Below are positions 17,041-64,000 of a DNA stretch of 64,000 nt, piece by piece; within the stretch, counting starts at the first letter, position 1, and each line of letters starts with the position of its first letter. The stretch is from contig MFGN01000001.1 of NCBI GenBank assembly GCA_001780285.1, positions 22-64,021 of the forward strand. The letters are read 5' to 3'. The notes beneath the pieces were generated by a model, which did no database searches, was not told where the DNA came from, and worked only from the letters and a program-made list of their open reading frames with translations. The stretch is from Candidatus Falkowbacteria bacterium RIFOXYD12_FULL_34_57. Its GTDB lineage: Bacteria > Patescibacteriota > Patescibacteriia > Patescibacteriales > UBA12075. The position numbers were made by a program, and so were the translations under genes.

Positions 17041-17916
17041 CTATTTATTTATCAATAAATCAAAATCATTATTAGTAATTCCAACACCCAAATCTTGCAT
17101 TATTCCAAAGGCATCATGGGGACGATTCAAAAAATAACGCTCTCCGTTTTCCGGATTTATGTACCAAGCTTCGCCATTTTCCTCTACCTGCAAAAATATC
17201 TTACCCAGATGAATATCAATAAAATCATCTTCAATTAAGATATTATCATTATTTTTACCATTTTCTCTAAATTTTGTCAAATTATTATTAGAAATACCTA
17301 TTCCCTGAGAACGCATCACGGAAAAAGCTTCGTTGGGCGAACCCAAAGAAAACATCTTGTTTAAAATAGGGTGGATGTAATAAGCTCTGCCCAAATCCTC
17401 TGGTTTGACAATAATCCTGCCACGCAACTTATTTAAAATTGGTGATGTATAAACTTTTATATAACTTGTTTGAGTAACATCAATTTTTATAATCGACCTA
17501 ACGCCAATATTCACATTCATGGCCACACCATCTTGTTGAATCTTATCACCCGAAGATATCACAAATAAAACACTTCCCTGATAACTACCAATATCAGCAT
17601 TTTCCGGTACTAAAACTTTCAATTTAATATTATGCAGCTCCTCTCCTTTTAAAAATTTAAGGCTTGAGTCGGAATCAAACTTTATCCAGTCATAAATATC
17701 GGATTCATCAACTGTCGCCTTAATATTATATGGCACATCAACGCACCACCTGATTAATTTTATATCACATAACAAATTATCTCCGGTCGTTACATCTGAA
17801 AAATTAATAATAGGCGGAACAATTTTGATTCCAAAATCATTACAATCCGCCAAGACTGGTTTTCGGCTTAAGCTGAATAAAAAAATTAACAATAAAATAA
17901 CAAATTTAAATTTCAT
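17041..17916 (-). CDS. secreted protein with an N-terminal Ig-like region and two copies of a roughly 50-aa GEAWY-NP...DAF..M repeat
   Basis: Signal peptide MKFKFVILLLIFLFSL (start moved to 17916). The repeats at residues 190-241 and 262-314 are homologous to the two repeats in the 62348 ORF. Confidence 0.7.
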   Translation of the reverse strand: MKFKFVILLLIFLFSLSRKPVLADCNDFGIKIVPPIINFSDVTTGDNLLCDIKLIRWCVDVPYNIKATVDESDIYDWIKFDSDSSLKFLKGEELHNIKLKVLVPENADIGSYQGSVLFVISSGDKIQQDGVAMNVNIGVRSIIKIDVTQTSYIKVYTSPILNKLRGRIIVKPEDLGRAYYIHPILNKMFSLGSPNEAFSVMRSQGIGISNNNLTKFRENGKNNDNILIEDDFIDIHLGKIFLQVEENGEAWYINPENGERYFLNRPHDAFGIMQDLGVGITNNDFDLLINK

Positions 17917-55440: not shown

Positions 55441-56415
55441 TTATATTTTGTAATAATCTTGATACCACTCCACAAATCTTTTTATCCCCTCTTCTACCGT
55501 AACTTGCGGCTTATATCCAAGCATTTTCTCCGCCTTGGAAATATCCGCCGAACTTACCGGCACATCTCCGGGTTGCATCGGCATCATGTTCTTTTTTGCC
55601 CTTTTGCCCAAATTTTTTTCAATCTCAGCGATATAATCCAATAATTTCACCGACCTGCCGCCGGCTAAATTAAATATTTCATAAGAATGCTCCTCGCTTC
55701 TATTGATTGCGGACACCACCCCGTCTACGATATCCGATACATAAGTAAAATCTCTGGCCATATTGCCATAATTGAAAACATTAATCGGTTTATCCCTGGC
55801 AATAGCATCGGTAAATAAAAATAAAGCCATATCCGGCCGGCCCCATGGCCCGTAAACCGTAAAAAACCTAAGTCCCGTGCATCTCAAACCGAACAAATTA
55901 TGATAAACGAAAGCTTTTTCCTCGTTGCCTTTTTTGGTCGCCGCATACAGAGACATCGGCGCATCCACCTTGTCATCTTCCGAAAAAGGCATTTTTTTAT
56001 TAGCCCCGTAAACAGAGCTGGAAGAAGCAAAAACAAAATCTTTGATATCATGATGCCGGCACAGCTCCAACATATTCAAAGTGCCAAGATAATTAGAGTG
56101 CTGATAAGCAAAGGGATTAGTAAGCGAATACCGCACTCCGGCTTGCGCCGCTAAATGTAATATCTTGTCTATCTTTTCTGTTTTAAAAATTTTATCCATT
56201 TCCTCGTAATTCGTAATATCTGTTTCAAAAATATAAAAATTATTAAAATCTTTCTCTAAATTTTTTATCCTATCTCTTTTTATCCGCGGATCATAATAAT
56301 TATTAAAATTATCAACAATCAATATTCTATCTCCCCGATTAAGTAAAACACGAGCTACACTAGATCCGACAAATCCGGCCCCTCCGGTAATCAAAATTGT
56401 TTGATTAACTTTCAT
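55441..56415 (-). CDS. NAD-dependent nucleotide-sugar epimerase (UDP-glucuronate 4-epimerase-like)
   Basis: Motifs TGGAGFVGS, DNFNNYYDP and YAATKKGNE. Confidence 0.88.
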   Translation of the reverse strand: MKVNQTILITGGAGFVGSSVARVLLNRGDRILIVDNFNNYYDPRIKRDRIKNLEKDFNNFYIFETDITNYEEMDKIFKTEKIDKILHLAAQAGVRYSLTNPFAYQHSNYLGTLNMLELCRHHDIKDFVFASSSSVYGANKKMPFSEDDKVDAPMSLYAATKKGNEEKAFVYHNLFGLRCTGLRFFTVYGPWGRPDMALFLFTDAIARDKPINVFNYGNMARDFTYVSDIVDGVVSAINRSEEHSYEIFNLAGGRSVKLLDYIAEIEKNLGKRAKKNMMPMQPGDVPVSSADISKAEKMLGYKPQVTVEEGIKRFVEWYQDYYKI

Positions 56416-56460
56416 ATAAACATTTAATCATTTAAACATGTAAGCAAAAATTTATCTCTT

Positions 56461-56487
56461 GTCATTCTGAACTTGATTCAGAATGAC
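56461..56487. repeat. minimal copy of the hairpin repeat (GTCATTCTGAA-CTTGA-TTCAGAATGAC)
   Basis: Perfect 11-bp stem using the same termini as copies 1-3. It lies between the epimerase start and the NUDIX stop. Confidence 0.8.
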
Positions 56488-56513
56488 ACAGGTGGAAAAT
56501 ATTTTCAAACCAC

Positions 56514-57068
56514 TTAAAGTAATCCCTTATATTCCAATATCTTTAGTGTTCCTAATATTTTGATATCAACCGTAAAATCATCATGCTTTTTTACACAAAA
56601 ATCCACCAAATCTTTCAAGGGTATTTTAATTACTTCAATATCCTCCGCATCATCGCTTTCTACCCCTTCAAAACCGACATATTCCGCATCAGGAGCATAA
56701 TAAATATCCATAACACAATCAGACATGCCGGCATTAAACGGTCCGCCATGCACATAAATAAATTTATCCGCGCTATATCCGGTTTCTTCCTGTAATTCTC
56801 TTTTTGCGGTATCTGTAAAATTTTCCCCGTCTTTATCCACTAGGCCGGCGGGGGTTTCTACCACGCATCCCTCATGAGGAATCCTGTATTGTTTAGTTAA
56901 AACAACTTCTTTTTCTTTTTTGGTTACAGCAAAAACAGCCACTATCCCGCGGACATTGCTGCGCTCCACGCATTCCCATAAACAATCTTTGCCGGTTTTG
57001 GTTTGAAATTCCTTGCCGATTACGCGAAGAAACTTGCCGTTATATAAATTTGTCTTTTTAAAATTCAT
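56514..57068 (-). CDS. NUDIX hydrolase (ADP-ribose/nucleotide-sugar pyrophosphatase-like)
   Basis: Nudix box AGLVDKDGENFTDTAKRELQEETGY. Confidence 0.85.
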   Translation of the reverse strand: MNFKKTNLYNGKFLRVIGKEFQTKTGKDCLWECVERSNVRGIVAVFAVTKKEKEVVLTKQYRIPHEGCVVETPAGLVDKDGENFTDTAKRELQEETGYSADKFIYVHGGPFNAGMSDCVMDIYYAPDAEYVGFEGVESDDAEDIEVIKIPLKDLVDFCVKKHDDFTVDIKILGTLKILEYKGLL

Positions 57069-57178
57069 AAATAAATAATTAGTCGAAAGTCCATAAAGTC
57101 TATAAAGTTAAAAGTAATTTATTAAAATTTTTAACTTTCAACTTTTGACTTTTAAATTTCTACCAGACAACTAGTTAT

Positions 57179-58114
57179 CTAGTTGTCTCTATATTTATTA
57201 ATCATATCTTCCCCATAAACCCCCATAAGCAAATCAAGATCCTTTTCACTTCTCACAAGCAAATGAATATTTTTATCCCGCAATGCTTCCAAAACCCGAA
57301 GCCCATATTCATTGGCAACATCCCTCTCGTACATTTCATGAAAAGCTGCAAAATCCTTGATAAAACAATGCCCACCGGCTCCTCTTCCGGATTTATGTAT
57401 CGGCTCCATGTGCAAGTCATTAAATTTCAATGTCTGGGCGACATGGCCGCCAGGCTGTCCGCTATTGTGTACCGGATTCATATGGGTAGAACCGATCCGC
57501 GGATCCGCAGCCATGGCCTCTTTGATAATATCCCACTCTAAATCATGGGCGCGGGTCAAATCATAAAGCATGTTAAAAAATATCACCTTAAAATAAAACC
57601 AATTATTGCCGCCATACTTGATAAATTCCGCTTCTTTAGCCCTGCAAATTTTTTCATAAGGGGCTTTCGGCAAACAATCCAATACTTCCTGCGCCCTGCT
57701 TATATATTCATCTGTTTCCAGCGGAATACCGATTATATTTCTAATCGGATTGGCTGCGTCATGAGCTGCTGTAGCTTCACTTAAAAATTCAGGGGCATGC
57801 AAAACAAAAAAACGAGGATTTTCCCTCTGAATAGATTCGGTGGTGCCGGGTAAGACAGTAGATTTAATTACGACAGTAGCATCGTCTCCGGCTATTTGTA
57901 TTGATTTTCTGATAAAACTGTCATCAAAACCCTTGGGCGTAGAAGGCGTAGGCACAGCCACAAAAACAATTCTACAATCCCTGATTAATTCTTTATTTTG
58001 TATATAAGGCTCCTCAAGTGAAAACCTTACTACATCATGCCCCCTGTTTTCAAAGTCATCGGCATAATTTTTGCCGATCCAACCTTGACCAATAAAACCA
58101 ATTTTTTTGCTCAT
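57179..58114 (-). CDS. UDP-glucose/GDP-mannose dehydrogenase-family protein, short form
   Basis: N-terminal Rossmann IGFIGQGWIG and the catalytic-Cys motif GGHCFIKD. At about 311 aa it appears to lack the usual C-terminal UDP-binding domain. Start moved to 58114. Confidence 0.65.
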   Translation of the reverse strand: MSKKIGFIGQGWIGKNYADDFENRGHDVVRFSLEEPYIQNKELIRDCRIVFVAVPTPSTPKGFDDSFIRKSIQIAGDDATVVIKSTVLPGTTESIQRENPRFFVLHAPEFLSEATAAHDAANPIRNIIGIPLETDEYISRAQEVLDCLPKAPYEKICRAKEAEFIKYGGNNWFYFKVIFFNMLYDLTRAHDLEWDIIKEAMAADPRIGSTHMNPVHNSGQPGGHVAQTLKFNDLHMEPIHKSGRGAGGHCFIKDFAAFHEMYERDVANEYGLRVLEALRDKNIHLLVRSEKDLDLLMGVYGEDMINKYRDN

Positions 58115-58292
58115 AAAATTTAAAATCTCCAAGCCCCGCACTTGGATATCAAGAATTAGTATACCTTCAATAGTATACTATTAATTATTAAATAAAAAAA
58201 ATTTAAAGTCAAGATAAATTACAACACAAAACAATAATAAATTGCAAATATATCCCCTACTTTTTCCTAGCTTAACGGAAGAAAAAAATATA

Positions 58293-58321
58293 TTGCTAAA
58301 ATATAAAAAATATTCTAAAAT
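58293..58321 (+). promoter_or_regulatory. promoter TTGCTA-N17-TAAAAT, 6 nt from ATG 58328 (leaderless architecture)
   Basis: Read directly from the sequence. No SD is present. Confidence 0.55.
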
Positions 58322-58327
58322 AACAAC

Positions 58328-59509
58328 ATGAAAACAGAAAATAATAAAAAAACAATACTCTATCTAATCACTCAATCCGAAATGGGTGGAGCGCAAAAAT
58401 ATATTTTTGATCTGGTTTCGCATCTTAAAGACGAGTATAATGTTGAAGTTGGCTTTGGCGAACAAGGAGAGACCGGAGAACTGGCTATAAAACTCAAAGA
58501 AATAGGGATAAAATACCATGTTATTCGCAACTTAAAAAGAAAAATATCATTTAAAAATGACTTTTTAGCTTTTTGGCAAATCAGAAAACTTATCAAAAAA
58601 ACAAAGCCGGATATTGTGCATTTAAACAGCTCAAAAATATCCATCCTGGGATCGTTGGCTTCTATTTTTTTAAAAATAAAAATTATCTATACCGCCCACG
58701 GGTGGGTTTTTAATGAACCTGATTGCAATAATTTTTATAAAAAAGCTGAAAGATTCTCGGCAAAATTCAAAAATAAAATCATCTGTGTCTCTGAGTTTGA
58801 CAGGCAAGCGGCCTTAAGGGAAAAGATAACAGAGGAAGTAAAATTAATCACGGTTCATAACGGTGTGAGGCCAATAAATTTTTTAGAAAGGCCGGAGGCT
58901 CAAAGAAAATTAAAAGAAAAATTGCCGCCAAGCGCCATGTTTAAAATTAACGAAGGAGATATTTTAATTGGTTCAATTGGAAATCTATACAAAACAAAGG
59001 GTTTTGAATACTTAATTAATGCCGGAAAATTAATTATCAACAACAATCTTCATGTAAAAATAATAATTATCGGCAAAGACGGGGGTGAAAAAGAAGAGTT
59101 GGAAAATTGGATCAGGCAGCTTGGAGTGCAAAAAAACATTATCCTTCTTGGACAACTTGAAAATGCTTCTCAAATTTTAAAAGCCTTTGATTTATATGTT
59201 TGTTCTTCGGTCAAAGAAGGACTGTCTTATACCATTATTGAAGCCATGCTAGCCGGTTTGCCGATTGTGGCAACAAGTGTGGGCGGAAACGGAGAATTGA
59301 TTGAAGATCAACAAACAGGTATATTGGTTGATACCCAAAACGCGGAAAAATTAGCCAAACAAATCATAAATACTTTAAGAAATCAGGAATTAATGAATAA
59401 GATGGCTATAAATGCTAAACAAAAAGCAGAAAAATATTTTACCATCGGTTCCATGGTAGAAAAAACTAAGAACATTTATGAAGAAATCACACAAACACAC
59501 AAACAATAA
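58328..59509 (+). CDS. glycosyltransferase family 4 (GT-B)
   Basis: Contains EGLSYTIIEAMLAGLPIVATSVGGNGELI. Confidence 0.9.
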   Translation: MKTENNKKTILYLITQSEMGGAQKYIFDLVSHLKDEYNVEVGFGEQGETGELAIKLKEIGIKYHVIRNLKRKISFKNDFLAFWQIRKLIKKTKPDIVHLNSSKISILGSLASIFLKIKIIYTAHGWVFNEPDCNNFYKKAERFSAKFKNKIICVSEFDRQAALREKITEEVKLITVHNGVRPINFLERPEAQRKLKEKLPPSAMFKINEGDILIGSIGNLYKTKGFEYLINAGKLIINNNLHVKIIIIGKDGGEKEELENWIRQLGVQKNIILLGQLENASQILKAFDLYVCSSVKEGLSYTIIEAMLAGLPIVATSVGGNGELIEDQQTGILVDTQNAEKLAKQIINTLRNQELMNKMAINAKQKAEKYFTIGSMVEKTKNIYEEITQTHKQ

Positions 59510-59524
59510 AACCATGAAACAAAA

Positions 59525-59556
59525 AATAATTACGTAGTTACGTAATTATTTTTTTA
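59525..59556. terminator. bidirectional intrinsic terminator
   Basis: Perfect 12-bp stem AATAATTACGTA-GT-TACGTAATTATT flanked by A- and T-runs. Confidence 0.75.
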
Positions 59557-59585
59557 TAAGTATATTTCAATATTATATCTGCGCA

Positions 59586-61829
59586 CTATTTCAAACTTTC
59601 AATAAAACTATTTGCGCTTGCTTCAATGCTGGGGTCAACTTTTATAGCCCTGCCCACAGCATCAATAGCCTTTTCCTTCTCTCCTTGTTCTGCGTAAAGT
59701 TTTGCCAAATTTATTAAATGTTTTACTTCTTGCGGTTCTTGAACAGATAATTGTTCATAAAGGCCGGTAACCCTCACCCAGTCTTCCGCGTCAACATAAT
59801 GATTAATAAGTTCTTTTATGTATCCTGCCGGAGTCAAAAGACCATACCCGCCCAAATCTATGCATTTATCTATTTCCTTATAAGCTTCTTCGGTCTGGCC
59901 GTAATGCAAAAGAGTTTTTCCGAGATGACAGAAACTATCATAATATTCATCGTTTAAACTACTGGCATAGCGCAGAGTCTCAATCGCTTTATCCGGTTCA
60001 TTGCGGGTAATGTAAATTTGTGCTTTCTGAAAATAAACCGGAGATCTGCCGGGACTAGCTTCTATGGACCTATTAATAGCTTCAAGCGCCCTATCTGAAT
60101 AATACATAAATTTTTCCTGATTATTCTGATAATATACAGAAGCGGTGTTTAACATTTGAGCAAGCATCATCTGATTCAAACTGTCTCCCTTGTTATAATC
60201 TACATTTTTCTCAGCCAAATCAATCAAATAATCAATATCCTGTTCAACTGTATCCTTATTTAATTGCTTCAGGGCATTTGGATTGGTGGCAAAAATACGC
60301 AAAAGGCTAGTACGGCTATCGCGGTCTAGGACGGTATTATAACTTAAAGCCTTTTTATATATTTCCAAAGTCTCCGGCACTCGACCAGCAGCATAAGCTC
60401 TCTGTCCGTCGATAGTTCCGTTTAACATTCTCCAGGGGCTTATGTTGTATTGATACATAATCATAAATAATAAAAATCCAGCAAAAACCAAAGTATAAAT
60501 TTCTTTATTTTCAAAATATCTGTCTTTAGTAAATTTATCAGATATCATTTTTCCTTTTTCCTGCAAACCCTCCAAAAAATTCTCCTCCCCTTCTTTGTGC
60601 ATCCAATATACATAACCAAAAACTACCATAATCAACATATAGGTTATAAAAGAATCAAAAACAGCCAAGTTTTGCACAAAATAAGCAATGATTAAACATG
60701 AAACCAACACGAAGTCATGGAGACCTATGTATTTCTTTCGATATCCATCTATTAAATAATAAGCGCTGGCTAAAAGTATAAAAAGATAAGTTGAGATTCC
60801 AAAAACTCCGGTAGTAGAGGCGATATCCACCACATTATTGTGCGCCCGATCAAAATATGTCTCACCCCTGGTTTGTAGATAAAAATCAGGAGTAAAATAT
60901 TTATCAAAAATAATCGCATAATTACCATGTCCTACGCCGATAATCGGATGAGCCTTAAAATCTTTAAGTCCGGCCTTCCATGATATTATCCTGGTTTGAA
61001 AAGTATTCTTTTGAAAATCTATACCCCGAATCGCTCGAAGTCCCGGGGTCCTGTCAAGTATCGGGCTGTCTTTGTGCGTAAAGAGCCATGAAATGATAAC
61101 TATGCCCAAAAAACAAATCGCAAGTGTTGCTATCTTTATCTTTTTATTCCTATTCAATACACCGTATAAAAACAATGCTGCCAAAATGCTCAATCCAAGA
61201 CCGACATGCGCGCCGCTAGTGCCAAGCTTATCAAAGTGAACAAAAAATAAGGGCAACGGAAGAAGATACAACCACTTTAACTCCTTAACTTTTTCCTTAA
61301 AAAATAACAATACACAAAAGTACATATTGAATATCAGATATCCGCTGACATAAGCCGAGTTGCCAATAGTACTATATCCTTTCTGATTCTCCCCTAATCC
61401 ATAAAAACTAATGAAAACTCCGCAGACCACCGATGCTATCAAAAGAATTTTCCAATCTTTCTGTTCGCGAAATACAGTAATTAAAATCAAATAAAATATA
61501 AAAAAGTGCAGGATATGAAAAGCGCCAAGCATTCTCTCTACATCTCCCCAAAAACTTAAATTAAAATCAACTCCGGTCACACAGGAAATAACCATTACCG
61601 CAAAAAAACTAATAAGTCCAAAAGTAATCCATGATTTTTTTGGGCGATACTCCGGATATTTCACTAAAAATGCTATCCAAAACACCAAAAGCACCTCCAT
61701 AATAATATTAAACGGTATTTGCTTTGATGTAATATAGGGAAACAAAAGACCTTTAAATACAAAGAATACGCAAATCAAAGAAAGATATATTCCTGATTTA
61801 AGAATGGTTAAATAAGTTTTTTGAGACAT
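59586..61829 (-). CDS. O-antigen-ligase-like polytopic membrane protein with C-terminal TPR repeats
   Basis: About 12 TM segments with a large loop, as in the Wzy_C/O-antigen ligase family, followed by about 300 aa of TPR-like helical repeats. Confidence 0.6.
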   Translation of the reverse strand: MSQKTYLTILKSGIYLSLICVFFVFKGLLFPYITSKQIPFNIIMEVLLVFWIAFLVKYPEYRPKKSWITFGLISFFAVMVISCVTGVDFNLSFWGDVERMLGAFHILHFFIFYLILITVFREQKDWKILLIASVVCGVFISFYGLGENQKGYSTIGNSAYVSGYLIFNMYFCVLLFFKEKVKELKWLYLLPLPLFFVHFDKLGTSGAHVGLGLSILAALFLYGVLNRNKKIKIATLAICFLGIVIISWLFTHKDSPILDRTPGLRAIRGIDFQKNTFQTRIISWKAGLKDFKAHPIIGVGHGNYAIIFDKYFTPDFYLQTRGETYFDRAHNNVVDIASTTGVFGISTYLFILLASAYYLIDGYRKKYIGLHDFVLVSCLIIAYFVQNLAVFDSFITYMLIMVVFGYVYWMHKEGEENFLEGLQEKGKMISDKFTKDRYFENKEIYTLVFAGFLLFMIMYQYNISPWRMLNGTIDGQRAYAAGRVPETLEIYKKALSYNTVLDRDSRTSLLRIFATNPNALKQLNKDTVEQDIDYLIDLAEKNVDYNKGDSLNQMMLAQMLNTASVYYQNNQEKFMYYSDRALEAINRSIEASPGRSPVYFQKAQIYITRNEPDKAIETLRYASSLNDEYYDSFCHLGKTLLHYGQTEEAYKEIDKCIDLGGYGLLTPAGYIKELINHYVDAEDWVRVTGLYEQLSVQEPQEVKHLINLAKLYAEQGEKEKAIDAVGRAIKVDPSIEASANSFIESLK

Positions 61830-61840
61830 AATAATGTAAA

Positions 61841-61873
61841 CTAAAAGCTAAAAGCTAAAAGCTAAAAGCTAAT
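61841..61873. repeat. tandem GCTAAA(A) units x4-5 in the gene leader
   Basis: ACTAAAA GCTAAAA GCTAAA GCTAAAA GCTAATG, about 11 nt upstream of the start codon. The unit is the same as at 21186-21209. Confidence 0.9.
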
Positions 61874-61975
61874 GTCATAAATAATAATATGGTTCTTTAT
61901 AAGTAAACAAAAACAACGATAATTAACCGTTATTTAGCTAACTTTTATTATATCAAAGCCTCAAAACATGTCAAT

Positions 61976-62004
61976 TTGACATTTTTATAACTATATGATA
62001 TAAT
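61976..62004 (+). promoter_or_regulatory. consensus promoter TTGACA-N17-TGaTATAAT
   Basis: Read directly from the sequence. It drives the small ORF at 62028. Confidence 0.7.
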
Positions 62005-62027: not shown

Positions 62028-62204
62028 ATGTCCATTAACGATCTGGCTCAAATATATAATTTTTTGAGCAACCAAATTCAATCGCTTCGGTATAGAATCT
62101 ATATGCTTGAAGCAAATTTCCAAAACCAAAAAACCATTGAAGCTCTGAAACAAGAGCTGCAAAAAAAAGAAAAAAAACAAAAAGAAATAGAAAAACAATT
62201 CTAA
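62028..62204 (+). CDS. small coiled-coil protein (58 aa), below the ORF-track size cutoff
   Basis: Translation MSINDLAQIYNFLSNQIQSLRYRIYMLEANFQNQKTIEALKQELQKKEKKQKEIEKQF. It has a consensus promoter, an AAGGA SD and a terminator. Confidence 0.55.
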   Translation: MSINDLAQIYNFLSNQIQSLRYRIYMLEANFQNQKTIEALKQELQKKEKKQKEIEKQF

Positions 62205-62206
62205 AA

Positions 62207-62232
62207 AAGACCGGCCATAAATGACCGGTCTT
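62207..62232. terminator. bidirectional intrinsic terminator
   Basis: AAGACCGG-N10-CCGGTCTT between convergent genes. Confidence 0.65.
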
Positions 62233-62347
62233 CAATATTTTTAACTCATTTGTTTAATAGTAAAATTCTATTCAAATGCATAAGTCCTGTAATAATTATT
62301 TCAATTTTACCGGGTTTTATAGTAAGCGACCCGCTAGCCCGCGATTT

Positions 62348-64000
62348 TTACAGAGAATCAAAATTACTATTGGATATCCCCAATCCCAGATTGCGCATGA
62401 CGGCAAAAGCGTCTGCGGGACGGCCCAAAAAATATCTTTTGCCGTCTCGGGGATTTACATACCAAGCCTCGCCTTTCCCCTCAACCTGCAGGAATATTTT
62501 GCCTTTATGGGTGCTTGCAAAATTAATATCTGTATTTATTTTTCCAGCGCCCAAAGGATTGTATCCATCCTCTACTTCTTGTTTATCACCAAATCCGTCG
62601 CTATCCGTATCTTTTTTGTTTTTATCAGTACCGATTGCGTCTTCAAATATATCAGAAAGTCCGTCGCCATCAGCATCTACTCCGCTTAAACTTGCAATAC
62701 CTATCTTGATTTTGTCTAAATTGACGCTAGATATCCCAACTCCCTGCTGCCGCATAACAGCAAAAGCGTCTTGGGGCCGTCCCAGATAATACATAGTCTC
62801 GCTCGCAGGATTCACATAATAGGCTTCTCCCTTGGATTCCACTTTCAATATAATCTTGCCGCGTAAATTCTGATACATGTTCTGGTTTTTTATTTGAACA
62901 GAAGCACTTATTGATTCTTTGTTTTGATTTTGAGTCTCAGTCTGGGTTTGGGTTGTATTGGAGATTCCTGTTTGTGAACCGCCCTCCTCATCACCGCCCA
63001 AGACAGTAAAAGTGCCTGTATCTGATTTGAAAACTGTTCCCGGAGAACTTTTGGAATAAGCATAAAATTCATAAATACCCGCCGCCAGCTTTTCTATTGT
63101 AACGCTATGGCTTGCCGCCAAAGCGTCTTTGCCGATTGATAAGTATTTTGCGTCCCCCTTCTTTTTATAATACACATAGCCGGAAGATAAGATATCAGTG
63201 CTCCAATCTATGGTTATTTTTTTATTTTCTTGATCAATTTTACTGGAAACATCCCCCATAAGGCTTATTTTATCACTTGGAGGCGTAAAGCATTGAAAAA
63301 CAGCCGAAGTTTTTTCAATAGTCTGGTTTTTGGCTTTTATCTCATATAAATACTCTGTCTGCGGTTTTAATCTTTTAAGCGTAACAACATGATTCATGGT
63401 ATCATCCGCCGCAGGCCATTTAGTAAGATATATACTGAGCAAAAAACGATCATATTCAGAATAACCCTTTTCTTTGTACATTATATACCCGTCGCTTTCC
63501 TTGTTAGTGCTCCAGATAATTTGCAGTGAAGAAGAACTGATTGTGCTGCATTTTACATCAGAGATATCAAAATCATACATATCCTCTAATGACTTATAAA
63601 CTGTAATAGTTTTATTAATTGAATTATTTTCTTCATTTGTCTCTGTTAAATCGCCGTGAATATCCGCCCTGAAGCTCAATTCGTGGATTCCGGCATCTTT
63701 TATTGTGCCTAAAAATTTATAACTAATAGTTTCATTTGGATTTAATGGATTGTCCGTATCCGGATATGTGCCATGGATAATTTCCGTAATCTCTATGCCG
63801 GGAAAACTATAAAGCAAATCTCCTCCGGTTGCGTACCCATAATCCCTTTCCAAAAGTCCTTTGGCATCCAAAAGGCTGATGCCGCCGGTATTCTTTACCA
63901 ATACAGTAATAGTAATATCGTCATCAACAATTAATTTGTTCAAGTCCTTACTCAAAGAAATAGAAGTAACAGCCAGATCAATATCATCTTCAGAACCGAC
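62348..64000 (-). CDS. large secreted surface protein, 3' part (CARDB-like + Fn3-like modules + TSP3-like Ca-binding repeats + two GEAWY-NP...DAF..M repeats); the 5' end lies outside the window
   Basis: The reading frame stays open to the window edge (VGSEDDIDLAVTSISLSKD...), so the track start is an internal TTG. Motifs include DADGDGLSD...DTDSDGFGD and the C-terminal repeats at residues 364-416 and 484-535. Confidence 0.75.
   Translation of the reverse strand, partial: VGSEDDIDLAVTSISLSKDLNKLIVDDDITITVLVKNTGGISLLDAKGLLERDYGYATGGDLLYSFPGIEITEIIHGTYPDTDNPLNPNETISYKFLGTIKDAGIHELSFRADIHGDLTETNEENNSINKTITVYKSLEDMYDFDISDVKCSTISSSSLQIIWSTNKESDGYIMYKEKGYSEYDRFLLSIYLTKWPAADDTMNHVVTLKRLKPQTEYLYEIKAKNQTIEKTSAVFQCFTPPSDKISLMGDVSSKIDQENKKITIDWSTDILSSGYVYYKKKGDAKYLSIGKDALAASHSVTIEKLAAGIYEFYAYSKSSPGTVFKSDTGTFTVLGGDEEGGSQTGISNTTQTQTETQNQNKESISASVQIKNQNMYQNLRGKIILKVESKGEAYYVNPASETMYYLGRPQDAFAVMRQQGVGISSVNLDKIKIGIASLSGVDADGDGLSDIFEDAIGTDKNKKDTDSDGFGDKQEVEDGYNPLGAGKINTDINFASTHKGKIFLQVEGKGEAWYVNPRDGKRYFLGRPADAFAVMRNLGLGISNSNFDSL

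Follow-up and report, generated by a model that had tools for sequence, protein, structure and literature searches.

What is a short repeat, shared by two secreted proteins of an uncultured bacterium, likely to do for the cell that makes it? This question is raised by a 64,000-nucleotide stretch of DNA from Candidatus Falkowbacteria bacterium RIFOXYD12_FULL_34_57 (GenBank assembly GCA_001780285.1, contig MFGN01000001.1, positions 22 to 64,021 of the forward strand; hereafter the window), whose minus strand encodes four copies of a repeat of about 57 amino acids (aa), one C-terminal pair in each of two secreted proteins. The organism belongs to the Patescibacteria. Much of bacterial diversity falls within this group, nearly all of whose members are uncultured and make their living in surface contact with other cells; the construction and decoration of their envelope are poorly known. 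A preliminary description of the window, made from its letters and open reading frames (ORFs), had noticed the four copies and suggested a lineage-enriched module for cell-surface anchoring or ligand binding.

Six-frame scans of the window, one with a profile and one with a motif, found these four copies and no others. In the large protein, the first copy (R1; YQNLRGKIILKVESKGEAYYVNPASETMYYLGRPQDAFAVMRQQGVGISSVNLDKIKIG) lies at 62699-62878 on the minus strand, corresponding to residues 375-434 of the frame that is open from base 64000, and the second (R2; FASTHKGKIFLQVEGKGEAWYVNPRDGKRYFLGRPADAFAVMRNLGLGISNSNFDSL) at 62351-62521 (residues 494-550), where it ends at the C-terminus. Between them lies a 59-aa, probably calcium-binding linker of the TSP3 type (62522..62698, minus strand; DADGDGLSD...DTDSDGFGD...GYNP), as indicated by Pfam, NCBIfam and a structural model. 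In the small protein, also on the minus strand, R1, the most divergent copy, spans 17260-17439, and R2, which ends 3 residues short of the C-terminus, spans 17044-17223 (all repeat limits are from profile envelopes and alignment). The four copies align over 57-60 columns without an internal gap, as the preliminary description had it; 15 columns are invariant, and the copies are 42-56% identical to the first of them. Its placement of the copies was also right: the two that it assigned to residues 364-535 of the large ORF correspond exactly to DNA 62351-62866, and the profile finds both of those that it placed at DNA 17053-17427 in the protein encoded at 17041..17916. The PROSITE-like motif that it proposed fits three copies literally, whereas R1 of the small protein (GRIIVKPEDLGRAYYIHP...MFSLGSPNEAF) deviates from it at about five positions.

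All four copies are recovered by a 60-column profile (A2) with the pattern G-x-I-L-L-Q-V-E-x-x-G-E-A-W-Y-V-x-P ... Y-x-L-G-R-P-x-D-A-F-x-x-M-R-x-x-G-x-G-I, although this support is partly circular because the window copies belong to the 39 sequences from which A2 was built. Independent support comes from BLASTP between the pair regions of the large and small proteins (E=4e-38) and from 58 database matches to a profile of the four window copies (A1), down to E=1.5e-44. Both proteins are exported, as had been proposed, since the small one has a signal peptide within the window (MKFKFVILLLIFLFSLSRKPVLA; 17848..17916, minus strand, from the translation, with an inferred cleavage site), and a database record that is 100% identical to the large one, P0321, supplies its missing N-terminus, including a signal peptide (MNFINF...FLFYPAVVQA/AYDLEV).

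Is the repeat a known domain? Neither Pfam (2025 copy) nor NCBIfam (June 2026) matched the repeat region of either window protein, and the 39 isolated copies gave only scattered Pfam matches at E≤10, to WW, SH3_15 and Arm-DNA-bind_1, in one or two members each. SLH (PF00395) matched neither the whole window proteins at E≤1 nor the 39 isolated copies at E≤10; dockerin (PF00404) was without a match in both sets, and LysM (PF01476), CW_binding_1 (PF01473) and PG_binding_1 (PF01471) were absent over the repeat in both. A choline-binding-like repeat was considered and rejected, as it had no hidden Markov model (HMM) support. Searches of Protein Data Bank (PDB) sequences with two profiles returned nothing under E=0.69, and a marginal match to the cortical-lytic enzyme 4s3j (E=1.2) was not significant. 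PHROGs profiles and tblastn against GenBank phages did not match the repeat, and full-text literature searches, for the motif strings and in work on Patescibacteria, did not find it described.

Structure prediction likewise brought no relative to light. A single-copy model from the 39-sequence alignment, of low confidence (predicted local distance difference test, pLDDT, 63), is built of three strands and two helices, the second of them short; the predicted fold comprises beta-strands at GKILLQVE, GEAWYVNP and KRYYLG, a helix over P-x-DAF-x-x-MR-x-LG and a short C-terminal helix. The R1-linker-R2 region of the large protein, modelled with AlphaFold2 from a 52-sequence alignment, forms one compact object (mean pLDDT 82, predicted template modelling score 0.72) with the same secondary structure in both copies. 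Its best part is the linker (pLDDT 93-96), followed by R2 (85-92 in the sheet, 63-77 in the helices) and R1 (61-73). Foldseek found nothing at E≤0.001 in the PDB with either model, and nothing significant in BFVD. The top PDB match of the pair model, the calcium-binding Bap B domain (7c7r; 47 columns, 38% identity, root-mean-square deviation 1.6), probably falls on the TSP3-type linker and not on the repeat. The likeness to TSP3 modules (PF18884; Myxococcus CglD/MtsD, Bap B domain) concerns the linker of the large protein only. The top matches of the single-copy model are to the N-terminal domain of lambda integrase (1kjk, 1z1b and 2wcc; E 0.09-0.23, TM 0.36-0.45) and are not significant. This arm-DNA-binding domain (PF09003; 1kjk) resembles the model in its three-stranded antiparallel sheet packed on a helix. 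However, the match is poor (E=0.09, TM 0.41-0.45, from a low-confidence model), there is no sequence relationship (1 of 39 copies, E=0.14), and an extracellular, duplicated, near-neutral repeat differs from a cytoplasmic DNA binder. The repeat is a family without an entry in Pfam or NCBIfam and without a structural relative in the PDB. The preliminary description could name no Pfam family, which the Pfam scans of the window proteins and the isolated copies bear out, nor did a characterised domain come to light in the Pfam, NCBIfam and PDB sequence and fold searches.

The family is large and appears to be confined to one part of the bacterial tree. Among 1.84 billion representatives clustered at 50% identity, the 39-copy profile matched 3,636 proteins with E≤0.001, of which 2,518 had E≤1e-30, and a pair profile found 2,686 clusters in the 90% database; a first search with a 61-aa profile had returned only fragments and tiny proteins of <110 aa, so that architectures were taken from the exhaustive search. 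The organism names on the database matches are Patescibacteria group, Candidatus Falkowbacteria, Kuenenbacteria and Parcubacteria, with no others, and the protein names are all "hypothetical protein" except for one "NDP-sugar pyrophosphorylase family protein" (JGI, the 91-aa fragment P0004). A scan of GTDB species representatives with one 10-aa pattern gave 60 loci in about 53 metagenome-assembled genomes (MAGs), titled mostly Patescibacteria, Falkowbacteria or Parcubacteria. One locus, on a 2.7-kb contig, is titled Omnitrophota, and 18 of the 60 are titled "uncultured Gammaproteobacteria" or "Muribaculaceae", all from a single third-party annotation (TPA) project with isolate names of the forms binchicken_co... 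and SRP..._co... (L003, L007, L014, L016, L019, L022, L023, L028, L034, L035, L037, L038, L047, L049, L052, L057, L058 and L059). The first of these, labelled Gammaproteobacteria, has the same two adjacent genes as the window at 33-50% identity, an arrangement that it also has in common with a Falkowbacteria MAG. Because it shares the gene order of the window and up to 50% identity, we judge the labels of this project to be unreliable; they look wrong and are not counted as spread beyond Patescibacteria. The database matches bear out the preliminary description, in which strings of this kind were said to be frequent in Patescibacteria, and the lineage enrichment that it expected is seen in organism names that are all patescibacterial apart from these unreliable labels. 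At least 12 MAGs, as detected with the single 10-aa pattern, have two or more module genes, and the window has two within 64 kb.

How the repeat is used in its proteins was assessed on the 150 best-scoring representatives, a sample that favours two canonical copies and from which all figures on pairing, position and conservation are drawn. Exactly two copies are present in 148 of these proteins and three in 2; nearly every module ORF in the 60 GTDB loci also has two. The pair is far commoner at the N-terminus than at the C-terminus: 125 pairs start no more than about 70 residues into the protein, 19 stand at its extreme C-terminus and 4 are internal, and in 2 cases the pair makes up nearly the whole protein. 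A C-terminal sorting signal was rejected, the pairs being mostly N-terminal. A signal-peptide-like hydrophobic N-terminus is found in 141 of the 148 proteins that start with Met, an enrichment in secreted proteins of the kind that the preliminary description had anticipated. No membrane-like helix follows the pair in any of 127 N-terminal-type proteins, and an LPXTG motif is absent from all 150. Spacers between R1 and R2 fall mainly into three classes: 39 pairs have 0-1 aa, 24 have 7-13 aa and 74 have 59-62 aa, this longest class being the TSP3-type linker found in the large protein of the window. There, TSP3_bac (PF18884) matches with E=0.0022 and 18.3 bits, under the 25-bit Pfam cut-off, and the NCBIfam CglD and MtsD models match the same residues, which include two D-x-D-x-D-G-x-x-D motifs; TSP3_bac is found at E≤0.001 in 33 of 118 homologues.

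The pair is combined with many kinds of cargo. Pfam searches of 118 of the best 150 proteins identified 40 partner families, most commonly Trypsin_2 (8), CAP (6) and Trypsin (5), followed by fn3, Pur_ac_phosph_N, Transglut_core and PA14 (3 each) and DJ-1/PfpI (2); single cases include Peptidase_S8, Peptidase_C25, SNase, YHYH, PBP, NAGPA, a beta-propeller, CARDB, LTD and PG_binding_1. The trypsin-like cargo has no PDZ domain, and replacement of an HtrA-type anchor was rejected for this reason. There are also stand-alone forms, consisting of a signal peptide and a pair (P0231) or of a signal peptide and one copy (P0019, P0031 and P0039). When the cargo domains of the large protein were used as a query to look for anchor swapping, only the source's own records came back.

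Comparison of individual copies indicates that the evolutionary unit is a differentiated pair, R1 plus R2, inherited together, rather than a single repeat. When each copy is matched to its closest counterpart in a different protein, the two share their index (R1 or R2) in 262 of 297 cases, compared with about 50% expected by chance. Copies of like index are also more similar than R1 is to R2 in every architecture class, with the exception of a four-protein C-terminal class with a spacer of about 10 aa, in which the R1-R1 value (0.513) is slightly under the cross value (0.526). The window follows the same pattern, with 65% identity between the R2 copies of the large and small proteins, 50% between their R1 copies and 34% between R1 and R2 of the small protein. 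Over 297 copies from 50%-non-redundant clusters, 20 of about 59 columns are at least 90% identical (G7, I9, L11, V13, E14, G17, A19, Y21, P24, G33, R34, P35, D37, A38, F39, M42, R43, G46, G48 and I49), a degree of conservation that is somewhat overstated because the copies come from the best-scoring representatives. Conserved polar or aromatic positions include E14, Y21, R34, D37 and R43, and W20 is kept in 74-90%.

What, then, might such a pair do? We give a probability of about one half to the reading that it is a non-covalent surface-retention module that binds a conserved component of the envelope. A protein exported by the Sec pathway would carry R1 and R2 right after its signal peptide or at its extreme C-terminus, with the two copies either directly abutting or braced by the calcium-binding TSP3 linker of about 60 aa. 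After export, the pair would bind a conserved envelope component, the likeliest target being the wall glycopolymer or peptidoglycan of the producer, and this binding would hold varied cargo at the cell surface, among them proteases, CAP, transglutaminase, nuclease and PA14 domains as well as arrays of Ig-like domains, of which the CARDB-FN3 protein of the window is an example. We infer the binding, its target and the resulting retention of cargo from a terminal tandem of fixed number, dozens of cargo domains, the presence of paralogues, the absence of another retention signal, conservation above that of the cargo and the existence of stand-alone forms. The compact predicted structure of the pair with its linker and the glycan-gene neighbourhood of the large gene, described below, also count in favour of this reading. 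The anchoring or ligand-binding role put forward in the preliminary description suits the terminal position, promiscuous cargo, paralogues and conservation; the arrangement on which it relied holds, and the function that it attached to this arrangement is still conjectural. The differentiated pair as the unit, the TSP3-type linker and the preponderance of N-terminal pairs were not part of it.

A more far-reaching proposal, which we entertain only tentatively, is that the pair may be the protein half of an independently evolved surface-display system of Patescibacteria, comparable to SLH and its secondary cell-wall polymer, in which a two-copy, sometimes calcium-braced anchor of new fold would recognise a lineage-specific glycopolymer made by the products of Wzy_C-TPR and GT4 genes. 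In the window, the large gene is followed on its 3' side by a hairpin with a T-run, a small convergent ORF, a strong promoter and then a surface-glycan gene cluster, which includes a gene for a Wzy_C (O-antigen-ligase-like) protein with TPR repeats (59586-61829), a GT4 glycosyltransferase gene (58328-59509) and genes for UDP-glucose dehydrogenase-like, NUDIX and NDP-sugar epimerase/dehydratase proteins. The synteny of the large gene, Wzy_C-TPR and GT4 (window 55441-61829) extends across several MAGs at 43-51% identity. The Wzy_C-TPR gene lies immediately downstream of the large-protein orthologue in four other MAG loci (L015, L006, L013 and L003), and in L030 a homologue lies upstream of the pair-bearing gene. 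The GT4 gene is kept in L015 and L030, and a second Wzy_C-TPR paralogue is found upstream in L006, L013, L025 and L012. The products of these genes might add glycans to the surface protein in its T/Q/S-rich linker, or might make its wall ligand. In a recent survey, wall anchors were described as swappable modules that are co-distributed with cognate wall-polymer genes (bioRxiv 10.1101/2025.04.02.646754), and the position of the large gene beside Wzy_C-TPR and GT4 resembles this co-location. The one neighbourhood of an N-terminal-type member that was examined consists of unrelated housekeeping genes.

Several observations weigh against surface retention. Most family members appear to lie among unrelated housekeeping genes, and the glycan-gene synteny, limited to one subfamily, may be due to shared ancestry. 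The signal peptides were called by a crude hydrophobicity rule and not by a trained predictor, and about 30% of all matches score below the 1e-30 level and may be single-copy, partial or divergent. The homologue P0146 has PG_binding_1 as a separate, extra domain, so that the pair is not always the sole candidate wall-binding element. The net charge of the repeat is near neutral (about +1 to +1.7), unlike that of many domains that bind anionic wall polymers. Finally, the fold of the repeat is predicted with moderate confidence only (the pair model has pLDDT 61-73 in R1 and 63-92 in R2, the single-copy model 63), and Foldseek searches of the PDB with both models gave no structural relative with a known ligand.

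The same modular logic, a terminal module on many unrelated enzymes, would also suit protein docking, in which the pair and the calcium loops of its linker would plug the cargo onto a scaffold, S-layer or pilus protein. Dockerins (PF00404), which serve cellulosomal enzymes, are likewise terminal, internally duplicated, equipped with calcium loops and attached to many unrelated secreted enzymes. The calcium-binding TSP3 linker is present in 74 of the 150 pairs and has the highest model confidence, and a near-neutral charge suits a protein interface. However, 63 of the 150 pairs have a spacer of 0-13 aa and no calcium linker, so that the calcium loops are not essential; in this family they are of the TSP3 type and lie in a dispensable linker outside the repeat. 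The repeat has no sequence match to the Pfam dockerin family, no conserved partner gene neighbours it in the loci examined, and no cohesin-like candidate family was found, a partner search not having been made. We consider docking of this kind to be unlikely.

An episymbiotic lifestyle is generally ascribed to Patescibacteria, and the pair could instead bind the envelope of a host or prey organism and so deliver lytic or scavenging enzymes to it. Protease, nuclease, CAP and transglutaminase-like cargo could act on another cell, and mobile elements or temperate phages carry secreted module proteins beside their integrase. Adhesion to a partner organism is nevertheless rather improbable in our view. 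Host-recognition modules usually diversify, whereas this one is kept with very little change in many lineages; it occurs in several paralogues per genome, and it is also part of large Ig-like array proteins that resemble structural surface components. The position of the pair a few residues from the signal-peptide cleavage site in 125 of 150 proteins would be expected if it were an export or folding tag, recognised by a dedicated machinery for sorting or maturation after Sec or acting as an intramolecular chaperone. We find this very unlikely, since 19 of 150 pairs, including both pairs of the window, are at the extreme C-terminus, stand-alone proteins exist, the pair is a folded, duplicated domain and not a short signal, and no conserved machinery gene lies nearby. 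That the repeat is a nucleic-acid or polyanion binder, capturing extracellular DNA or teichoic-acid-like polymers with a beta3-alpha fold like that of the lambda integrase domain, is hardly credible: the top Foldseek matches of the single-copy model, the one Arm-DNA-bind_1 match among 39 copies (E=0.14) and one family member with an SNase nuclease point that way, but the fold matches are non-significant and come from a model of pLDDT 63, small topologies that combine a sheet of three strands with a helix are very common, the net charge is only about +1 and almost all cargo is unrelated to nucleic acids. DNA binding was rejected in view of the weak matches and the near-neutral charge.

Surface retention by a binding module would have parallels in known wall-anchoring systems. 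The features from which we infer it are, taken together, characteristic of the non-covalent anchors of monoderm bacteria (SLH, CWB2, LysM and WxL), to which the repeat would be analogous and not homologous. The SLH (PF00395) and CWB2 (PF04122) modules of Firmicutes are also short, present in fixed copy number at the N- or C-terminus of exported proteins, common to many paralogues with unrelated domains and much better conserved than the cargo. The SLH fold is helical and the CWB2 fold is alpha/beta, whereas the repeat is predicted to have a beta3-alpha-alpha fold and is without a sequence match or a significant PDB fold match. Furthermore, it has two differentiated copies and not three, an optional TSP3 calcium brace and named sources that are all Patescibacteria. 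A further likeness is that cognate wall-polymer genes are often near SLH and CWB2 genes (10.1101/2025.04.02.646754), as the large gene of the window adjoins Wzy_C-TPR and GT4. The non-covalent, wall-binding LysM, WxL and choline-binding repeats (PF01473) of monoderm bacteria are comparable as small modules that are variably fused to enzymes and adhesins. Stand-alone, module-only proteins are described for WxL clusters (PMC10599100), and the repeat family has such proteins as well. The G-E-A-W-Y-V-N-P...G-K-R-Y-Y-L string of the repeat superficially recalls the aromatic beta-hairpins of choline-binding repeats. By contrast with these modules, the repeat gave no HMM match to them at E≤10 on 39 copies, and its copy number is fixed at two and not variable.

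What is new here is a family without a Pfam or NCBIfam entry and with a distinctive layout, a differentiated pair with an optional calcium brace; the inferred anchoring role is of a well-known kind, and Patescibacteria have many domains of unknown function that are specific to their lineage. If the pair is an anchor, the module would provide a sequence handle with which to list surface-displayed enzymes and adhesins, and fusions of the pair to a fluorophore could serve as a reagent for labelling cells or for identifying the bound envelope polymer. It would also offer a candidate route to S-layer proteins, and would stand as an independent example beside the few modular systems for wall anchoring that are known in Firmicutes. 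Should it be half of a dedicated display system, the surface proteome that these uncultured, ultra-small bacteria display could be listed by searching for the module, and the large pair-bearing Ig-array proteins would be S-layer candidates. If it is merely a structural spacer or a minor binding domain, it would be one more lineage-specific domain deserving a Pfam entry.

The remaining parts of the two window proteins can be described as follows. The large gene (62348..64000, minus strand) has its stop codon at 62348-62350, and its frame is open to base 64000. As there is no stop within 63956-64000, the ORF runs off the end of the window, and the 535-aa ORF of the preliminary description is an N-terminally cut protein, of which the window holds the C-terminal 550 residues. 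The full product has about 745 aa and consists of a signal peptide, two CARDB domains, two FN3 domains, a T/Q-rich linker and the repeat-TSP3-repeat region. In P0321, the signal peptide is followed by about 195 further aa that run on into the CARDB domain of the window. Within the window, the cargo comprises this CARDB domain (63614..63937, minus strand; PF07705, E=7e-07, 29.8 bits, cut-off 22.7), a beta-sandwich of the FN3 or purple-acid-phosphatase-N type (63293..63562, minus strand; PF16656, 33.8 bits, cut-off 30; PF00041, 29.1 bits, cut-off 25) and a second FN3-like domain (62999..63274, minus strand), which has no Pfam match and was recognised by internal BLASTP to the first (E=2e-06). 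A low-complexity linker rich in G, S, T, Q and N precedes the pair (62879..62998, minus strand, from the translation; GGDEEGGSQTGISNTTQTQTETQNQNKES...). P0321 is identical to the window protein up to ...TQTQTET in this linker and then has an unrelated tail of 17 aa (VKVPVSDLKTVPGELLE) and no repeat pair, as might be expected of an assembly variant or of a strain that has lost the anchor. The small gene (17041..17916, minus strand, from ORF and translation) starts with an ATG at 17916 and encodes 291 aa, in the order signal peptide, unassigned beta-rich domain of about 135 aa, R1, 12-aa spacer and R2; the whole protein matched no Pfam or NCBIfam family at a significant E-value. On the plus strand, the ORFs at 62250-62789 and 62276-62689 opposite the repeats are antisense shadows with low-complexity translations that show no sign of being genes, a separate search of them not having been made.

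Some variants were also noted within the wider family. One sub-family, with P0236, P0227, P0305 and many proteins of 310-322 aa, consists of a signal peptide, the pair with a TSP3 linker and a C-terminal domain of about 110 aa that has no Pfam match and follows the pattern ...AIRxxxxxxTxxYFxPxMxxSIEYSxxxxxxExxxxLANILSGSxL...YFYVxKxxxGxWxxxxL. In a sub-family of the repeat itself (P0039, P0045, P0049, P0050, P0052 and the L062 and L063 proteins), which includes single-copy proteins, [ML]-K-D-G-x-x-A-[FY] replaces the near-invariant L-G-R-P-x-D-A-F. The last two are signal-peptide proteins encoded on viral or mobile-element contigs of IMG/VR, at L062:5899-6528 (equivalent to L061:490-1119) and L063:3702-4943. 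Their genes lie a few hundred bp to about 1.3 kb from a tyrosine integrase, in a moron-like position, and that of L063 also adjoins a gene for a 1,358-aa LPD38 polyvalent protein. The L062 protein has one copy of the repeat, and the L063 protein has a pair with a 3-aa spacer.

The region between the large gene and the Wzy_C-TPR gene contains further elements that were read from the sequence. The hairpin (AGACCGGTC-ATTTAT-GGCCGGTCT followed by a T-run) lies at 62203..62231 on the minus strand, about 115 nucleotides past the stop codon at 62348-62350; it has the look of an intrinsic terminator, although a consensus scanner did not report it. The small ORF, unlisted and convergent with the large gene, lies at 62028-62204 on the plus strand and encodes 58 aa that appear coiled-coil-like (MSINDLAQIYNFLSNQIQSLRYRIYMLEANFQNQKTIEALKQELQKKEKKQKEIEKQF). 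Its stop stands directly before this hairpin, which may be a bidirectional terminator because it ends the large gene too. Its promoter (61976-62004, plus strand) is a perfect TTGACA-17-TATAAT with an extended -10 TG, and is one of two perfect sigma-70 consensus promoters at 61947-62004 that point in opposite directions, one toward the small ORF and the other toward the Wzy_C-TPR gene, with -35 boxes that form the palindrome TGTCAAATTGACA. Between the latter promoter and the ATG of the Wzy_C-TPR gene (61829) lies a perfect tandem heptamer at 61841-61872, with 4.6 copies of CTAAAAG on the plus strand (AGCTTTT/TAGCTTT on the coding strand), and this repeat in the 5' leader could serve phase variation by slipped-strand mispairing.

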